A stretch of DNA of 58,766 bases, counting the filler, from Basidioascus undulatus (Eukaryota), in NCBI GenBank assembly GCA_000826855.1. It is 4 parts of 4 records of this genome, joined end to end, with 100 filler letters (N's around TTAATTAATTAA, not from the genome) between each part and the next. Parts side by side here need not be neighbours in the genome. Positions count along the whole stretch, not along the records: positions 9,686 to 39,407 come from JTLS01000124.1; 3 more parts are not named here. One strand, given 5' to 3'. How positions within the stretch are numbered: the first letter of the stretch is position 1; each line of letters starts with the position of its first letter. The notes beneath the pieces were generated by a model. It saw nothing but the letters and a program-made list of their open reading frames with translations, was not told the DNA's origin and ran no database searches. The position numbers and the translations under genes are program-made. Below are positions 9,686-22,794 of this stretch, one piece after another.

Positions 9686-12600
9686 ACGATGAAGAAGATG
9701 ACCGTGGACAGCATGAGGTAGAGACCGTACGCAATCGCGTAAATGAAGATCTCGACGAGGTCCCATGCGTCGGGCTCCATCGAAGGAAGGACCCGGTCGA
9801 CGGAAAGGGTCATGATGCTGTGTGTTTGAGAATCAGCTTCCGAAAACGAGCTCGACTGAATCAAGGAGAGCACGCACGTTCCGTCGTTGAGGAGCGCAAT
9901 GACAAGGACCATGAACGGAGGGAAGTCGAACTTGTACGCAAAGACCAAGATCGCAAAGCCGGTGACAATACGGATCGTGACGGCGCAAGCGTAGATCTGG
10001 GGAGGGTGCCCGGGATGAGAGCCGACGCGGGAATGGTGAATCAAGGCAGGTACGCACCGAGTAGTTGCGCATGCGTTGGAAGATGATACGGGAACCGCGG
10101 ATGGCGTGGACGATGGTGGAGAGACCGGGCTCGGTAAGGACGATGTCGGCGGCGCCGCGAGCAGCGTCCGTGGCACCCTCGACGGCGATACCGACGTTGG
10201 CGCGCGAAAGAGCAGGAGCGTCGTTCGCGCCGTCACCGGTCATCGCGCAGAGGTGGCCTGGAACGAAGTTCGCATCAGCGACCAGCTCGAAGAGGACGCA
10301 AAAAGGCTGAAAACTCACCCTGAGCCTGGATACGCTTGACAATCTCGTACTTGTGCTCGGGGAAGACACCAGCGAAGCCGTCGGCGTCCATGATCATCTC
10401 GTCCAGGGAGAGGTGCTTGGTGCCGGGCTCGGGACCGTCCTTGAGGACCTTGGCGGGGTACATGTGGTCGCCGAGACCGAGACGGCGACCGGTCTCCTTG
10501 GCGATGGCGAGCTGGTCACCGGTGACCATCTTGACCTTGACGCCGAGCGCCTGCGCGTCGTCGATCGTCTGCTTGGTGTCGGAGCGGGGCGGGTCGAAGA
10601 TGGCGAGGAGACCGATGAGCTCGAAGCCGGTGCCCTCGGCCTCGTGGTGGTCGCCGTTGACGTCCTCGTACGCGACAGCGAGAGCGCGAAGACCGCGGTT
10701 CGCGAACTCCTCGACATCGGCCTCGAGCGCGTCCTCGACCTCGACGGTCTTGTTGCGGGTGCAAAGCTCGATCTGAGATGGATGGACAATGTCAGGAACA
10801 GTCTCAAGAATTGCGAAGAGGGATGCACGCACGATGATACCAGTCATACCCTTGGTGACGCGCTTCAGCTTGCCAGAGGACTCCTCGCGGTAGGTGATCT
10901 CGGTACGCTTGGAGACGGGGTCGAAGGGCTTGAACTCGAGGAGGGTGATGCCCTCGCGAGCCTTGCCGGCCGCGACCGACTCGACGACACACTTGTCGAT
11001 GGCGTCCTGGTTCTCCGTGCGCGACGCGTAGGCGGCGAGGAGCATGACCTCCTCGGAGTTGAAGGGGCCGTAGGTCTTGACGAGCTCCTTGTCGATCGTG
11101 AGCTTGTTGGTCGTAAGCGTGCCGGTCTGTTGGAAGGTTGCGGGAGTCAGATACGGTCAACAGCGTGCGGTCAGAAGGATCCAGAACGCACCTTGTCAGA
11201 ACAGAGGATGGTGACACCCGCAAGCTCCTCAATAGCCGTGATACGGGTGACAATCGCCTTGTACTTGGCGAGCTGCTGAGCACCGATAGCGAGAGTAACC
11301 GAGAGAACACTGATCAAAGCGGAGCGTGGAGGATCTCAGCAATCATGCCAAAAGGCGCAGAAGCAGCTGGGTATGCACGTCGGCATGGCGATGGGGATAC
11401 CACCGACGAGGAGCACAAGGATGTTGTCGATACCGCGGCGGTAGTCGTAGCGGTGGGCAGCGTACATGACCAGGAGCTCGACTGCGCAGGCAGACCTCGA
11501 GTCAGTACCGAGCGACGCCGCTAGGGCAAAGTCGAGCTACGTACGGACGATGAAGAGACCGATGGAGCCAAGGCAGAACATGCCGATCTGCGCAAGGACC
11601 TTTTGCAGGTGACCGGTCGTGTCGTCATCCTGGCCGACGAGGGAGGCAGCGCGACCGAAGAAAGCTAGGGAACACAGACGGCAAGGTCAGCGGCCGCAAA
11701 CTCGAGCAGTAGACGTTGATAAGTGACGTACTGTTGCCTCCGGTGGAGATGACGACACCCTCAGCCTCACCCTGCTTGCAGGTCGAGCCGGAGAAGCACT
11801 GGTCGCCAAGCTTCTTGTTGACGGGGAGCGACTCGCCCGTGAGGGCGGCCTGGTCGATCGAAACGTTGAGGGCCTCCGTGAGACGGCAGTCCGCCGGAAC
11901 GATGTCACCAACTGTTGGAGAGGATGATCAGCTTGCGTACGCCGTGAACTTCGGGGTAATGGCTCGAGACGCACTCTTGAACGCGATCATGTCACCGGGA
12001 ACCAGCTCGGCAGACTCAATCTTCTTCCAGCTGCCGTCGCGCTTGACCGACGCCTGGGGCGCGAGCGAGTCCATGAGGGCCTTAACGGCGGAGCCGGCGG
12101 AGCGCTCCTCGTAGAAACCGATACCAGCGTTGATGAACAGCAAGAGGACGATACCGACGAAGTCCTGCCAGTCGGGAGGCTTGCCGAACCCGTTCGACAG
12201 GCCGATGGCGACGAGGGCGGCACCCTCCATGACCCACGAGAGCGGGTTCCACATAAAGGAGAGGAACTGCGTGGAGCTTTCCCGTTAGAGCGCACGGGCG
12301 GGAAGAACGCGGGCGTCGACGTACGTGGAGGAACGCGTTCTGCTCCTCAGCCTCAAGCTTGTTGGGGCCGAAGATGTCAATACGGCGCTGGGCCTCCTCT
12401 GTCGTGAGACCCTCCTCCGTAGCCCTGGCGGTGCAGACGATCAGCGCGAGGTCTCAAGGGGAAGATGGAAGCTTGAGCGCGAGACACGACGCACTGGAGA
12501 AGGGTGAAGACATCCTCGACGACGATGGTCTCGAGGTCAACCTTGTCCTTGTTGTACAAGTCCTCGGCCTTGAGCTCGATCTAAATATCGTGGAGAGCAT

Positions 12601-13093
12601 CGTCGGAGGCAGCGTCGAGGCGATTGAGAGGTCGGCAGAGCGCGTGGAGGAGGAACCAAGAATAGCATCAGCGACCTGACCAGCGATCGCGCTTGATTAT
12701 CTTCCCCAGCACGTGAATGATAGCGAGCGCATCCACACGACCAGCAACCATTCCACCGCAACGTCCTCCCCGTATCGCAACCTCGAGTTGCAGAACCGCG
12801 GTCGAGGGCGCGATGTGGCGCCGCCAGCGCCGCCATGCCAGCCCGACCAGCTCCGCGAAACAGAGGCAAGACGCACCTCGCTCATATCGACCAGCGCGTG
12901 CGTCGGCTTCTCCTCCTGTGAACGCACGCATCGTCAGTGCTCTGGGTGCACAGGCAGCAGCTCAAGTCCAACGCACCTCATGGCCGAAGTCCTTGTACTC
13001 GCGCTTCTTCTTCTCCGGCTCGGCGGCAGGGGCCGGGGCCACGTCAGCGGGGGCGTCGCCGCCCTCCTTTTCAATCTTCTCGTGGTCAGACAT
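9686..13093 (-). CDS. PMA1: Plasma-membrane P3A-type H+-ATPase, multi-exon, 3' end lost at the gap
   Basis: MSDHEKIEK start, [37 protein letters not shown] (phosphorylation motif split by an intron), [51 protein letters not shown]. Confidence 0.97.
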
Positions 13094-17400: not shown

Positions 17401-18812
17401 CTAGTTGCCGTACTGTAGAGTCGCAGCGCGGTGGGTCAGCGAAAGCTCCGATCTCACGCTGGATGGTGCTAGTGCCATGGACTGCACCTTATTCCTCGTC
17501 CTTCTTCTTGTCATCGTCCTGATTAGGATGGTTTCAGCCCCACACACGGGATTGATACGCGTACAATGTTGACTGCACCTTCTTTTCATCCTTTTTGTCC
17601 TCGTCCTGAATAGAGGAGGTCAATGAAATCTCAAACTTCACTATGGACACAGCTAAGGCATTTAAGGCACCTTCTTCTTGTCGTCGCCCTAGGAAAAAAA
17701 GTTCAGTATTAGATACGCTATCGATATGAGTAACGTTGACTCAATGTACTTTCTTCTCGTCCTTCTGATCCTTCTTCTCCTCGCGCTTCCGCTTATCATC
17801 TTCCTTCTTCTCCTCATCCTGAATGGAGAAAGTCAGTGCAAGCTCAGACGTCCCTATGGACACCAGTAAAGCATTGATAGCACCTTCTCCTTCTTGTCTC
17901 TGGATGGAGGAAGTAAGCAACAGCTCAGACTTCACTATGGATCTATGGGTGCAAGTGAAGCATGGAGCGCATGGACAGCACCTTATTCTTGCCCTCGGCC
18001 TTCCTCTTCTCATCATCCTGACGAGGACGAGGTCAGCACGAGATGGATGCACGATGGATATGTGTAAACGTTGAATGCACCTTCTTCTTGTCCTCGTCCT
18101 GATGGCGCGCGTCAGCGACAGCTCAAACTGCACCATGGACGAACGTAAAAGTTAAAAGCACCTTCTTTTTCCTCGCGCTTCGTCTTCTTCTTGTCCTCGT
18201 CCTGACGGGGGAGTCAATGACAGCTCAGACTCCTCTATGAATGAAGCATCGAAGCACCTTCTTTCCGTCACTTTCCTCCTTCTTTTTATAATCGTCCTAT
18301 TAGCTCGCTTTGGGTCAGCAACGGCCGACAACCCAGGCTAAATGGACCATCAACTATACCTTCTTCTTCGTGTCCTCATCCTTCTTTTTGTCGTCATCCT
18401 GTGAGATCGCGTTGGGTCAGCAACAGGCTACACTCCAGGTTGAATGCAGCCTCAACCGTACCTTTTTCTTCTTGTCCTCAACGTTCTTGTCCTCGTCCTA
18501 GTGAGGATGGGATCAGGGAAAGCCAGCTGGATGTGGGTGGCAAGTGGAACGTTGATGTACCTTCTTCTTCTTATCTTCGTCCTTCTCTACCTCCTGTATT
18601 AACCCAAACAGTTTGCCGTTAGCATCACTGCGTCCTGCAAGTGGCCCGAGGCAACGTGCCCTCTTGAAGTTGTCATTCCAGTGACGCTTGCCCAAATCAC
18701 CCGCATCACGACGGCTCAGCATGTTGGAGCCGGTCACGACGTCGAGCGGCATGGCCGCTGCCATGGCGGAGGCCGAGAAGGCAACGACGGCAAAGATGGA
18801 GCTGGTGCGCAT
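17401..18812 (-). CDS. Secreted Lys/Asp/Glu-rich precursor encoded by a tandem micro-exon array (about 14 exons)
   Basis: Exon 1 (18812-18660) reads MRTSSIFAVVAFSASAMAAAMPLDVVTGSNMLSRRDAGDLGKRHWNDNFKR. Micro-exons bounded by YAG and GT, with CTRAY-like branch sites: 18593-18561 EVEKDEDKKKK; 18497-18462 DEDKNVEDKKKK; 18398-18360 DDDKKKDEDTKKK; 18296-18258 DDYKKKEESDGKK; 18201-18162 DEDKKKTKREEK(+1); 18098-18081 DEDKKK; 18017-17982 DDEKRKAEGKNK; 17899-17884 (+1)DKKEK; 17818-17750 DEEKKEDDKRKREEKKDQKDEKK; 17688-17671 GDDKKK; 17605-17579 DEDKKDEKK; 17518-17488 DDDKKKDEE*; 17412-17401 YGN*. Confidence 0.8.
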
Positions 18813-20626
18813 TTTGAGTGGAGTGGGTGGGGAGCGTGTGGATTTGAGGAAGTCCAATAGGCTTGTGTATAAGTGTTTTTGGAGAGCTTGGGAGAAAGCT
18901 GGGTGATGAAGCTTTCCAACCTGTTGAACGCTGGCCTTTTTAACGGGGAAAGGAGCAGAGATGCGCACTGCAGCGGTGACCACAGTCTGTGGCACCAGGT
19001 TGTCCCGCTGCCTGACTTCACTTGAAGACATTCATAGCGAAAGTTATTTGCGTCAGCATGAAAAGGTGGCGTGCACTCTCTCGTGAATCAAATACTACCG
19101 TTGCTGATCGCCCAACTAGCATGGGCGTCTCCATGGATGCGGAGCAAAGTCAGGCACCGCTCACGGAGCCACGGGATCTGTTCGATGGGAGACAAATTGT
19201 GCAATCGCGATGATAGTACTTTCATCACAATGTTTCCCGGCTTCGAGAAGGCTCCGACCAAGATCTGAAGCCGGCCGCATTGCGGGAGGGGCTCGCGGTG
19301 CGACTCTGGTGCTTGCGCTCGCTGGCATGGACCAGCTTTCCAGGAGGCATTACGGGGGCAAGAGCTGTGATGACCCTGAAATAGACCAAGGATTTTCATT
19401 TACAGCATCCTCCCTTGTGCGACCGCCGAAGATCGATCAGCAATCCACGAGCGACCAGTGCGGGGCAGTCAACCTCTGATCTTCTCGGACTATTTTCGCA
19501 AGGTCTTGGCGAAGCCTCTCCACCAGAGCCTGAAAAAGTGTTAAATATGACGCCACGGCCGTTTAATATGGTCTCTCATTCATGCGATCCTTCTGCGGCT
19601 GCCCATGCAGCGAGACGGACGCGGCGCCCTGTAAGCTGCGAGGTGTTGGTTGGCCTGGAAGAAGGCAGTGGGTACGCACGTCAGGAGACACAAATTCGGA
19701 AGACAAGATCGAGATAAGCATGATAAAGACGGCAGAGAGGCAGAAGGGAAGGCACAAAGCTGAACCTCTTTCTTGGACACAACTGGTCAACTTGCTGGAC
19801 CTCGATCGACTCATGATTATCCAACATCATCACGGACCGCCAACCCGCCCGGCAATCACCATCGTTGGCGAAAGACCATCGCAGAGCAAGGCGGAACGGA
19901 CGCCAATCGAGCTGTCGTACCGTCCTGTCTCCATCATAGTCCTCCGCCGCGACGTGATCTTGCTGCAGTTGCAGATTGACGAAGCTCCTTTGCTTAAGGC
20001 TATTACTCATCCATCTCATGCGAGTCCTCCGAGACGTTTTCATACCGCCAAGTATCAGGTCGCGTGAATAGTTGCGTATGTAGAGGCCAATTGAGTCGTG
20101 AAGACGGACGCGACACGCTTTCGCTGCAGCATTCGATTCGTGACGAACATCTTAGCATGTGCGGAGCAAACCCCGATTCGGTGATGACCACCAAGTGATG
20201 AAGACTTTGAGCAGTGAGAAATTTACCAGCCGTGCCTCGAATAGCTGGGTGGAACGCGAGCCAAATAATGAGTTTGGTTTGAAGGCCATCAGCGAACGCC
20301 GGATGCGAGCGTTACGAGCAGCGACCCTAGATGTATGGAACAGCACCATGTCGGGCGATACGTCCATCGAGGGATACACGCGACACGTCGAGCGAAAGGA
20401 ACACGAGGGCAGCGTCGACGTCAGTATTGCGGCGAAGCAACCAGGTCAAACAAGTCAAACGTGAGCACGCCCGAGCGGTCGTCGTCAATCGCATGCCTCA
20501 CATAGGACCATAGGGCAGAATCAGTAGGGAATGGTGTACAAACCGCACGCCGGACGGCCTAAGTTCGACATGCGGTAGGGCTGGATGGGATGGTGCAGGT
20601 GACAAGGAAACCGAAAGAGGACACGC

Positions 20627-21236
20627 TCAGAACTGCCGACGCCCCAAACCGCGAAGGTTAGCATACAAACTTGGGAGCGGAGGCCTAAAACGGGGTAGAC
20701 GCACCCGGAGCTGGGAGAAGAACCAGCGGTTCTTGCCAGACTGGTACCGGTCCTCAAGCAGCTTCTTGACGACCTTCTTGGCGTCCTCGCGCTGCGAAGG
20801 CTCCTTGAAGGTGTCCTGGGTCACGACACCCTTGAGGCCCTCAAGCTCGAGCGCGTAGCGGGTCGGCATCAGGTGGGTGTAGTTGACCGACTGTTCGCTC
20901 AATCCCTCCCGTCAGCTCCCTGCCACCGGAAGGATTCGACTGGACCAGAAGCGTACCTTGATGAAGGGCTTGACCTTGGAGCGGCGCGAGACCTTCTTGG
21001 CGCCCATGCGCTTGGTCACCTTGCGCGGGTAGCGCTCGATGCCGGCGACGCTGTCGTTCCCACCAAACGTAAGTGCCAGCTCGCTTCAGTCCCCGGCGAG
21101 AGAAGACGGACATGGCGTGGCCGTAGGGGCGCTCCTTGGTCCCGTCGTCGTACTGCTTGATGACGACGACCTTCTTGCCGGCGAAGCGGCCTGAGAGGAC
21201 GACGGCGACCTTGCCAGCCTTGTAAACCTTCGGCAT
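20627..21236 (-). CDS. RPL27: 60S ribosomal protein eL27
   Basis: [103 protein letters not shown]; the last exon is only TTC TGA. Confidence 0.97.
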
Positions 21237-22794
21237 TCTCTGCGGGATTGGCAAAAAGGAGGTCAGCTTGCTTTCGGGCTGCGGCGGATTGGAGTCCAGC
21301 CCGGCGGGCGGTGGACGGGCAGTGGTGTAATGCTCCCCGTTGGGAAATTGAGAACCGACCCAAGCCCCACGACATTCAGAAATGACCCTCAAAGCCATCG
21401 CTGCTCCTATACGCGGAATTGCGGGCGGTCGGACGAGCGCGCGCCGACCCGTGCCAGGTTTGCACTTCCCCAACATCCGCGTGTGCCCCTTCTTCAACCC
21501 GTCTGTCCTCCAACCTCCGTGCTGCAGCACGAATCTGGCGCGGCCTCAAACCAGCACCGGCTCGCCGGAGACTCTCAAGGCCAGCCCCGAACCCCCTGCA
21601 CGCTCCCTGTACAGCTTCTGGGGAGGCAGACTCACGACTTCTGTTCGAGAGAAACGGAGCGCAAAAGTGCACGACGGCGCACAGAAGGTAGGGTGTGCGG
21701 TGGTGCAGCGGAGAAAGAGGACGGATGGGTCGAGGGATTCGGAGAAGGCGCAGGGAGGTCGGCAGGGGCAGAGGGGACGGCCGTGCGTCAAGGCGGAATG
21801 CGGTATCGGGAGAAAGCGACAGCGGAGGGGATGAAGAATATGTGGATCGGAACGTCAGTACATCTGCCTCGTGCAAAAAGTCAGTATGCTGTTTACCAAA
21901 CGCACGAGGATGGGCGACGAGGTGGGGCGGAGGAGGTCAGCACGCTCAGTTCGAAAATGTGCCTGCTCACGTTTGGCCTTTCGGTGAAAGCTGAATTCCC
22001 CTCGGGCCGATGACCACCCTCTCCATCTTGCAACTTGCTTCCTTCAACCCATCCATTTCTTCCACATTGAAATTATCTCTTTGATCAATCTTGTACCTTC
22101 TTTTGATCAGAGTCTGATTTATAGAGACAAAGAGCGATTCCGAGTCTTCAGTTGATGCGACCTCGATGCGTACGCGGGAGCTGATAGCGATCCTTTGCAT
22201 GTCTTGTTGGCCGTCGTGCAGAGTACTAACGAAACATTTAATTTGGTTCAATGAAAATAGTCGAGCTTCCAGTCCAGGACAGTGAGAGGATCTTATCCCT
22301 TGAAGCCTCGAGGTCGGGATGAGAGATCGCTTTTCCTCGCGCAGACATGCCTTCCGAGTCGTCCCTTTCTCTTTCACTCTAGATTGATGTGGACGATTCT
22401 GATACAGCATTCCATGCTCTTGGAAGTGTGTCCAGACTAAATGGGACGGGCGACGGTCAGTTCTTGCTCTGAGAGCGGCGTCGTCCGCCAAAGGGGCCCT
22501 CAGTGAGGAAGGCTAGCTGCATCGCTCACAGGATCAATCCGGTCAATCGTCTCACGGCAAATCAGCCCCTTAAGCGAATGGTAGTAAGACTGCTTAAGCA
22601 TTATCAGGGCTCCGAATTAAGCACGGGTTTTCGGTTCGATCATTCACATTCTCTGCACAACTCGACTACACTTAACATCGTGTCGAGCAACCAAGACTGG
22701 CTATGCCGATTCTGTGGCCTAGAGACAGGAATGTTATTCGAATAGTCAGCCTCGTTGCTCGCTCGAAAGGCTCAAAGGACGCACCGGCACTCAC

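Follow-up and report, generated by a model that had tools for sequence, protein, structure and literature searches.

A tandem array of micro-exons in the fungus Basidioascus undulatus: a probable spliced gene for a putative secreted polyampholyte

Introduction

Can the repeat region of a fungal secreted protein be put together from a tandem row of tiny exons, and does splicing choose among them? The question is raised by a locus of Basidioascus undulatus (assembly GCA_000826855.1), analysed here within a stretch of 58,766 nucleotides (nt), called the window below, of which positions 9,686 to 39,407 come from JTLS01000124.1. The locus lies on the minus strand and extends from an ATG at 18812 down to 17401, the lower coordinate set by a first-pass annotation of the same DNA. 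That annotation described a signal-peptide exon followed by a hidden series of micro-exons, and proposed that exon skipping would turn it into a combinatorial generator of secreted, charged products. Judging from the sequence, we consider it probable that the locus is a lineage-specific, spliced, protein-coding gene that has grown by tandem duplication of a unit consisting of a phase-0 micro-exon and an intron; a gene that is real, or was real until recently, is the best reading. The observation made in the first-pass annotation largely stands and is not a product of chance, and its interpretation is half right.

Architecture of the array

The locus starts with an exon holding a signal-peptide-like N-terminus (exon 1), followed by 11 purine-rich micro-exons of 36, 39, 39, 40, 18, 36, 16, 69, 18, 27 and 31 nt, with AG immediately before and GT immediately after every block. 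The predicted features are as follows.

Exon 1, 18561..18812, minus strand: 252 nt, 84 codons; start ATG at 18812-18810; donor GTACAT.
Eleven internal introns, within 17519..18560, minus strand: 63, 63, 63, 56, 63, 63, 82, 65, 61, 65 and 60 nt; mutually homologous.
Micro-exon 2, 18462..18497, minus strand: 36 nt, DEDKNVEDKKKK.
Micro-exon 3, 18360..18398, minus strand: 39 nt, DDDKKKDEDTKKK.
Micro-exon 4, 18258..18296, minus strand: 39 nt, DDYKKKEESDGKK.
Micro-exon 5, 18162..18201, minus strand: 40 nt (3n+1), frame-breaking.
Micro-exon 6, 18081..18098, minus strand: 18 nt, DEDKKK.
Micro-exon 7, 17982..18017, minus strand: 36 nt, DDEKRKAEGKNK; contains the TGA at which the all-exon reading ends (codon 143).
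Micro-exon 8, 17884..17899, minus strand: 16 nt (3n+1), frame-breaking; DKKEK from its second base.
Micro-exon 9, 17750..17818, minus strand: 69 nt, 23 codons, rich in D, E, K and R.
Micro-exon 10, 17671..17688, minus strand: 18 nt, GDDKKK.
Micro-exon 11, 17579..17605, minus strand: 27 nt, DEDKKDEKK.
Micro-exon 12, 17488..17518, minus strand: 31 nt; DDDKKKDEE, then TAA at 17491-17489, then a G before a further GT donor.
Twelfth intron-like spacer, 17413..17487, minus strand: 75 nt, GTGCAG...CGCTGAC...CTACAG, downstream of the TAA.
Terminal piece, 17401..17412, minus strand: 12 nt, YGN and then TAG; the last exon of the first-pass annotation.

The twelfth spacer would be an intron in the 3′ untranslated region, or a coding intron in a frame-shifted reading, and the 12-nt piece closes the frame in isoforms without exon 12 or in a shifted frame. 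Of the roughly 13 tiny exons (12–69 nt) announced by the first-pass annotation, 11 (16–69 nt) are clear. Its ten multiples of three are reached when two extra pieces, the final 33 nt of exon 1 and the terminal 12 nt (17412-17401), are included as exons; otherwise, nine of the 11 micro-exons count as such, the exceptional lengths being 40, 16 and 31 nt, with the stop codon inside the 31-nt exon. By binomial arithmetic, nine of 11 would arise with a chance of about 0.0014 among random lengths. The description of exons that begin with Asp, Glu or Gly and end in KK or KKK holds well: the first codon is GAY or GGC in 10 of the 11, and most end in AAG-AAG.

Within the window, the array is unique. 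A 22-nt exon motif has 10 matches, all inside the array, where 0.01 would be expected, and a 22-nt intron core has four matches, every one of them again inside it. Tandem Repeats Finder reports a period of 102 nt across the array. This periodicity is also the starting point for a different view, namely that there is no gene here and that a non-coding tandem repeat of about 80–130 nt, with a purine-rich part that looks codon-like, happens to lie beside a chance open frame. The units are clearly duplicates of one another, and the GA-rich blocks are so poor in T (18 of 369 nt) that they are open in all frames. What bears on this view is the pattern of conservation in the spacers and the behaviour of the reading frame, which are treated in the following two sections.

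Splice signals and spacers

All 12 spacers (the 11 between exons and the one after the last micro-exon) begin with GT and end with AG, which bears out the canonical sites of the first-pass annotation for a signal-peptide-like exon followed by many tiny ones. The donors read GT[A/G]C in 11 of 12 spacers, the acceptor is YAG, and a CTGAC-like branch motif falls in a single aligned column. A strict CTRAY lies 13–20 nt before the acceptor in seven of the 11 internal spacers; the other four carry a one-mismatch TTGAC, CTTAC, TTGAC or CTGAA at the aligned branch column, so that the branch points annotated at every exon hold in the strict sense for seven and as variants for four. The variant CTTAC belongs to the longest intron (82 nt), which precedes micro-exon 8. 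C occupies position +4 in 11 of the 12 spacers, and no other anchored position (+5 to +12, −30 to −4) rises above 10 of 12. On the exon side, the donor is preceded by AAG in 11 of 12 cases, micro-exon 9 being the only exon with AAA at this place.

Outside these signals, little is shared: in global pairwise comparison, the 12 spacers have an identity of 0.62, compared with 0.54 (sd 0.04) for shuffled spacers, meaning that the splice signals are conserved on a background close to saturation. Because the units are duplicates of one another, they are not independent observations, and the question becomes what has been kept since duplication. The answer (GT, AG, the branch motif and the C at +4, while the rest is almost randomised) is a selective conservation that argues against a non-coding repeat.

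For comparison within the same genome, the window offers a neighbouring gene for the plasma-membrane H+-ATPase PMA1 (9700-13012, minus strand), which was delimited by tblastn with a Coprinopsis homologue, the matches covering residues 24-777 in nine pieces. Six PMA1 donors, found in the gaps between matched stretches, read GTGCGT (four) or GTACGT (two). As GT[A/G]C is common to PMA1 and the array, the array donors are of the donor type of this genome, which again speaks against a non-genic origin. Five gaps between high-scoring segment pairs give PMA1 intron lengths of 58, 73, 55, 67 and 62 nt (55–73 nt, versus 56–82 nt in the array), and the PMA1 branch motifs (CTGAC, CTAAC or CTGAT) match those of the array. 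The exon-sized matched stretches of PMA1 are as small as 36–93 nt, and short exons are therefore routine in the B. undulatus genome.

Two further observations concern the spacers and their signals. At 5′ splice sites, the local consensus is GTGCGT/GTACGT, carrying C at +4, where textbooks give GTAAGT/GTGAGT; when short intron-like stretches were sought de novo across the window, the commonest donor hexamer was GTGCGT (15), followed by GTGAGT (9) and GTGCGC (7). Furthermore, four spacers share, with at most three mismatches, the mid-intron core of 22 nt (17626-17647, 17920-17941, 18118-18139 and 18220-18241, minus strand), which lies beyond the splice signals and may reflect younger duplications or a splicing-related element. 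RNAalifold found no conserved base pairs in the 12 spacers, and Rfam gave no RNA family, its sole match being a chance-level lncRNA (E 0.71).

Reading frame and possible products

D, E or K is encoded by 115 of the 132 sense codons of the micro-exons (87%; 55 K, 34 D and 26 E). Codon choice favours G/C-ending codons (AAG 49 to AAA 6, GAC 22 to GAT 12, GAG 19 to GAA 7), and the same pairs stand at 20:0, 18:1 and 27:0 in the PMA1 exon. Reading on from each exon, an in-frame stop is met within the following spacer in 11 of 11 cases, and the blocks therefore cannot form one unspliced frame. This codon preference in the D/E/K frame, together with a TAA in that same frame in the last unit and a signal-peptide-like frame that runs into the first block in phase and ends exactly at a GT, sits poorly with a chance open frame beside a repeat; taken with the conserved splice signals, it leaves the non-genic account very improbable.

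The continuity of the frame, which the first-pass annotation took for granted, does not survive, as three exons of 3n+1 length (40, 16 and 31 nt) had been overlooked. Joining all exons shifts the frame after the 40-nt exon and leads to a stop at codon 143 in exon 7, giving 142 amino acids (aa). A frame of 187 aa that remains D/E/K up to the TAA in exon 12 is obtained only when the 40- and 16-nt exons are both omitted; over its 114-residue tail, the fraction of charged residues is 0.895 and the net charge per residue −0.018. Among products near 200 aa, just one terminates at 17401: it has 198 aa, keeps both odd exons and drops exon 7, and its last ~50 residues are arginine-rich rather than D/E/K. 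The spliced product of about 200 aa made almost entirely of D, E and K is accordingly not recovered: one version has nearly the length and an arginine-rich C-terminus, and the other has the composition, 187 aa and two exons fewer.

Both frame-breaking exons resemble single-base insertions, since micro-exon 5 ends in EEKK, as its neighbours do, once one A of its A5 run is removed, and micro-exon 8 reads DKKEK from its second base. No frameshift occurs in the long PMA1 exons, and so the two odd lengths are probably real, an assembly error not being the first explanation.

If real, these lengths could be the lesions of a decaying pseudogene, a former micro-exon gene that is now inactive and without a useful product. 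Two of 11 micro-exons of 3n+1 length, an all-exon reading that stops at codon 143, donors that are weak at +5 and searches that gave no homologue to show a maintained family are all in keeping with such decay. They have to be set against 24 GT and AG dinucleotides, none of which is lost in spacers that are otherwise nearly random, and against the four exons past the second lesion, which retain their sites, coding lengths in multiples of three up to the stop codon, and the codon bias. Moreover, even the 142-aa product would consist of a signal peptide and a polyampholyte, and omission of two exons restores the 187-aa frame up to the TAA in the last micro-exon. On balance, we regard a pseudogene as rather unlikely.

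Exon 1 and the choice of start codon

Exon 1 encodes signal-peptide-like residues 1–20, then a pro-region with RR, KR and KR sites, and finally the first D/E/K block, an acidic-then-lysine stretch (EVEKDEDKKKK) directly before GTACAT. Its N-terminus has one arginine (residue 2) followed by a 15-residue stretch of hydrophobic and small residues with ASA/AAA motifs. Hydropathy in the Kyte-Doolittle 11-residue window peaks at 2.19, and the ASA/AAA motifs, with small residues at −3/−1, fit a cleavage site.

The ATG at 18812 stands in a CAAAATG context, and an in-frame ATG lies upstream at 19031-19029 (minus strand), 73 codons before it. The interval between them is listed here.

Probable 5′ leader, 18813..19031, minus strand: C/A-rich; G+C at third codon positions (GC3) 0.53, versus 0.68 in exon 1.

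We take the ATG at 18812 as the start because GC3 is lower in the leader, the context at 19031 is poor and no further ATG occurs between the two. In the same region, two tiny upstream open reading frames (ORFs) begin at 19059 and 19035 (minus strand).

A good branch-plus-acceptor signal is also present inside the frame of exon 1 (18594-18640, minus strand: TGCTAAC, 21 nt, ACAG), just before its last 33 nt, and perhaps survives from an original first intron that later turned coding. An intron ending at this ACAG was considered and set aside: the only in-frame donors, GTGACC (144 nt) and GTCGTG (147 nt), are unlike the local donor type, and exon 1 is for this reason treated as continuous.

Points that weigh against a coding gene

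Several findings count against the spliced, protein-coding gene that we prefer. First, the two micro-exons of 40 and 16 nt shift the frame and bring a premature stop into an mRNA that contains every exon. Second, G is found at +5 in one of 12 array donors as compared with six of six PMA1 donors. Third, triplet slippage in a purine-rich repeat could keep lengths in threes in the absence of coding. Fourth, exon 1 has no homologue among proteins of 46–147 aa or of 148–2000 aa. Lastly, the signal peptide of exon 1 was judged by inspection (hydropathy, small residues), and the ATG at 19031, if used, would bury the hydrophobic segment.

Exon skipping as a source of diversity

Would the array act as a combinatorial generator, in which weak donors and symmetric exons allow free skipping and yield a secreted ladder of charged isoforms, as in Schistosoma? 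Nine of the 11 micro-exons could be dropped with no change of frame, the donors are uniformly weak at +5 and +6, and the full-length D/E/K frame even demands that two exons be skipped. However, in a comparison of 23 fungi, skipped exons made up about 3% of alternative-splicing events and an unrecognised site normally led to intron retention (PMC3925392), which makes free skipping unlikely a priori; here, each retained intron brings in a stop. The exons are, in addition, near-synonymous, so that skipping would alter the length of the product rather than its kind. Combinatorial exon skipping at this array is unsupported and unlikely, and as an account of the whole locus we find it highly doubtful.

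A variant gives the odd exons a role of their own. Those of 3n+1 length (40, 16 and 31 nt; their sum is a multiple of three) might act as frame switches, and the 198-aa product to the TAG at 17401 would then join an N-terminal half that is a D/E/K polyampholyte to a C-terminal half that is an arginine-rich polycation. If so, splicing could decide whether this one locus secretes a neutral or a strongly cationic product. It is a long shot that the odd exons serve in this way; it is likewise improbable that the array represents a fungal counterpart of the micro-exon gene principle that employs short introns with weak donors and leaves the length of the polyampholyte to its symmetric exons.

Comparison with known systems

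The closest architectural parallel is found in the micro-exon genes (MEGs) of Schistosoma. In MEGs, as predicted for the array, a signal peptide leads a secreted product of less than 200 aa, most of the coding sequence is spread over numerous tiny exons, largely of lengths divisible by three, and automatic annotation handles the structure poorly (bioRxiv 10.1101/2023.06.21.545858). MEG exons span 3–81 bp, a range into which the internal exons described here fall (16–69 nt; exon 1 has 252 nt), and symmetric exons, also typical of MEGs, account for nine of 11. The N-terminus of the B. undulatus product is signal-peptide-like by hydropathy and −3/−1 residues, with an in-frame ATG upstream. In contrast, MEG introns measure 0.1–5 kb and MEG splicing is exon-defined, whereas the introns of the array have 56–82 nt; MEG proteins carry hydrophobic and aromatic motifs, whereas the B. 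undulatus product is 87% D, E and K; and MEGs are restricted to Schistosomatidae, whereas the array is fungal and bears no sequence similarity to MEG proteins. Isoform variation is documented for MEGs. Given these differences in intron length, taxon and sequence, the array is an analogue and not a member, and the likeness drawn in the first-pass annotation holds for architecture only.

A second parallel comes from fibrillar collagen genes, in which exons of 54 bp each hold one repeat in phase 0. There, as here, each exon-plus-intron unit is tied to a repeat of the protein and can be multiplied in frame by unequal crossing-over. Unlike the array, these are animal genes with long introns that encode a structural triple helix, and there is no kinship in sequence or function.

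Among fungal secreted proteins, the Kex2-processed repeat proteins (KEPs; for example Ustilago Rep1, Laccaria MiSSP8 and the alpha-pheromone precursors) combine a signal peptide with tandem repeats that end in dibasic sites, as predicted for the array, and the RR, KR and KR sites of the pro-region are KEP-like. The mining definition of KEPs calls for at least three repeats of at least 8 aa between KR, KK, RK or RR sites (PMC7329392). In the 187-aa reading, most segments between dibasic sites are 2–5 aa long; four of 20 reach at least 8 aa, and only two of those lie in the repeat part, so that the product falls short of this definition. The repeat boundaries also differ, being KK or KKK in the array and KR in KEPs, and an arrangement of one repeat per exon is not described for KEPs in the text consulted (PMC7329392).

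In composition, the product would fall among the strong polyampholytes of the Das-Pappu class, delimited by a fraction of charged residues above 0.35 and a net charge per residue below 0.30, with 0.895 and −0.018 for the 114-residue tail. In fungal secretomes, such polyampholytes are reported to be enriched at the C-termini of effectors and of secreted proteins of animal pathogens (bioRxiv 10.1101/2025.10.01.679754). In that account, the class is compositional rather than a family and is silent on gene structure, and the composition found here is far more extreme. Lastly, micro-exons as such are ordinary in basidiomycetes, given that about 9% of Coprinopsis gene models contain one of at most 15 nt (PMC12230235).

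Homology searches and genomic setting

A search of exon 1 against 1.84 billion representative proteins returned two weak matches (E 5e-7 and 2e-5). The proteins concerned, P0001 and P0002, are both internally repetitive, were matched in five to six near-identical stretches, and are treated as chance. P0002, the better-looking of the two and with a score that we regard as inflated by repetition, is a signal-peptide-bearing protein of 392 aa in which a motif recurs five or six times between K/D/E-rich linkers; a 25-residue motif in the pro-region of exon 1 (residues 35-59; 18650-18710, minus strand) is 52–56% identical to it. This likeness is probably also chance inflated by repetition. P0002 hit no Pfam family, and P0001 hit only DUF7427 below threshold (21.4 bits, cut-off 27). 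The single locus from a metagenome scan (L001) was rejected as spurious, consisting of a 19-residue match in unrelated GC-rich DNA. Searches of exon 1 against Pfam and against PDB sequences gave nothing.

The long PMA1 exon (10275-11156) helps to put this outcome into perspective. Its identity to any protein in the collection is at most 77%, and its matches at 74–77% are almost all from Agaricomycotina, which marks the window as basidiomycete-like and shows that the collection has no close sequenced relative. As nothing in it exceeds 77% identity to the PMA1 exon of B. undulatus, the lack of exon 1 homologues says little. Upstream of the micro-exon gene, the next recognisable gene encodes ribosomal protein L27e (20627-21545, minus strand), with a Pfam Ribosomal_L27e match (E 1.4e-26) in the frame at 20627-20911 and a KOW motif in 20841-21545.

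A model for the gene and its product

According to our preferred reading, the repeat unit would be one phase-0 micro-exon with an intron of about 63 nt, amplified by unequal crossing-over. Transcription would start no more than about 200 nt before the ATG at 18812, and the short introns would be removed singly through intron definition. The resulting mRNA is predicted to yield a truncated protein of 142 aa of the same kind or, when the 40- and 16-nt exons are omitted, the 187-aa protein. In either case, the N-terminal hydrophobic segment would serve as a cleavable signal peptide, cut around Ala16–Ala20, and would be followed by the pro-region with its three classical dibasic sites (RR, KR and KR). 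The tail is expected to be charge-neutral, strongly charged and disordered, with acidic triplets alternating with lysine triplets and one or two modules in each exon. Its likeliest role might be that of a hydrated polyampholyte, secreted or associated with the cell wall, and further cleavage at KK or KKK by Kex2- or yapsin-type proteases is conceivable.

Implications

The unusual feature of this locus is a repeat region made from a tandem micro-exon array, a layout that is very unusual for a fungus. In open-access literature and bioRxiv, we found no fungal gene described with a repeat region of this construction, and protein searches with exon 1 as the query gave nothing similar. According to one paper on fungal micro-exons, no functional microexon of a filamentous fungus had been described before 2024 (PMC11121469). 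Practical value is modest until expression is shown. As a natural test, the locus would confront a fungal spliceosome with twelve consecutive donors lacking G at +5. If transcribed and spliced as predicted, it would be a fungal gene with a repeat region assembled from a tandem micro-exon array, and would point to a class of secreted proteins overlooked by annotation that relies on ORFs and by much of the annotation that relies on models. It would also mean that, under intron definition, unequal crossing-over between exon-plus-intron units can lengthen a disordered secreted protein.

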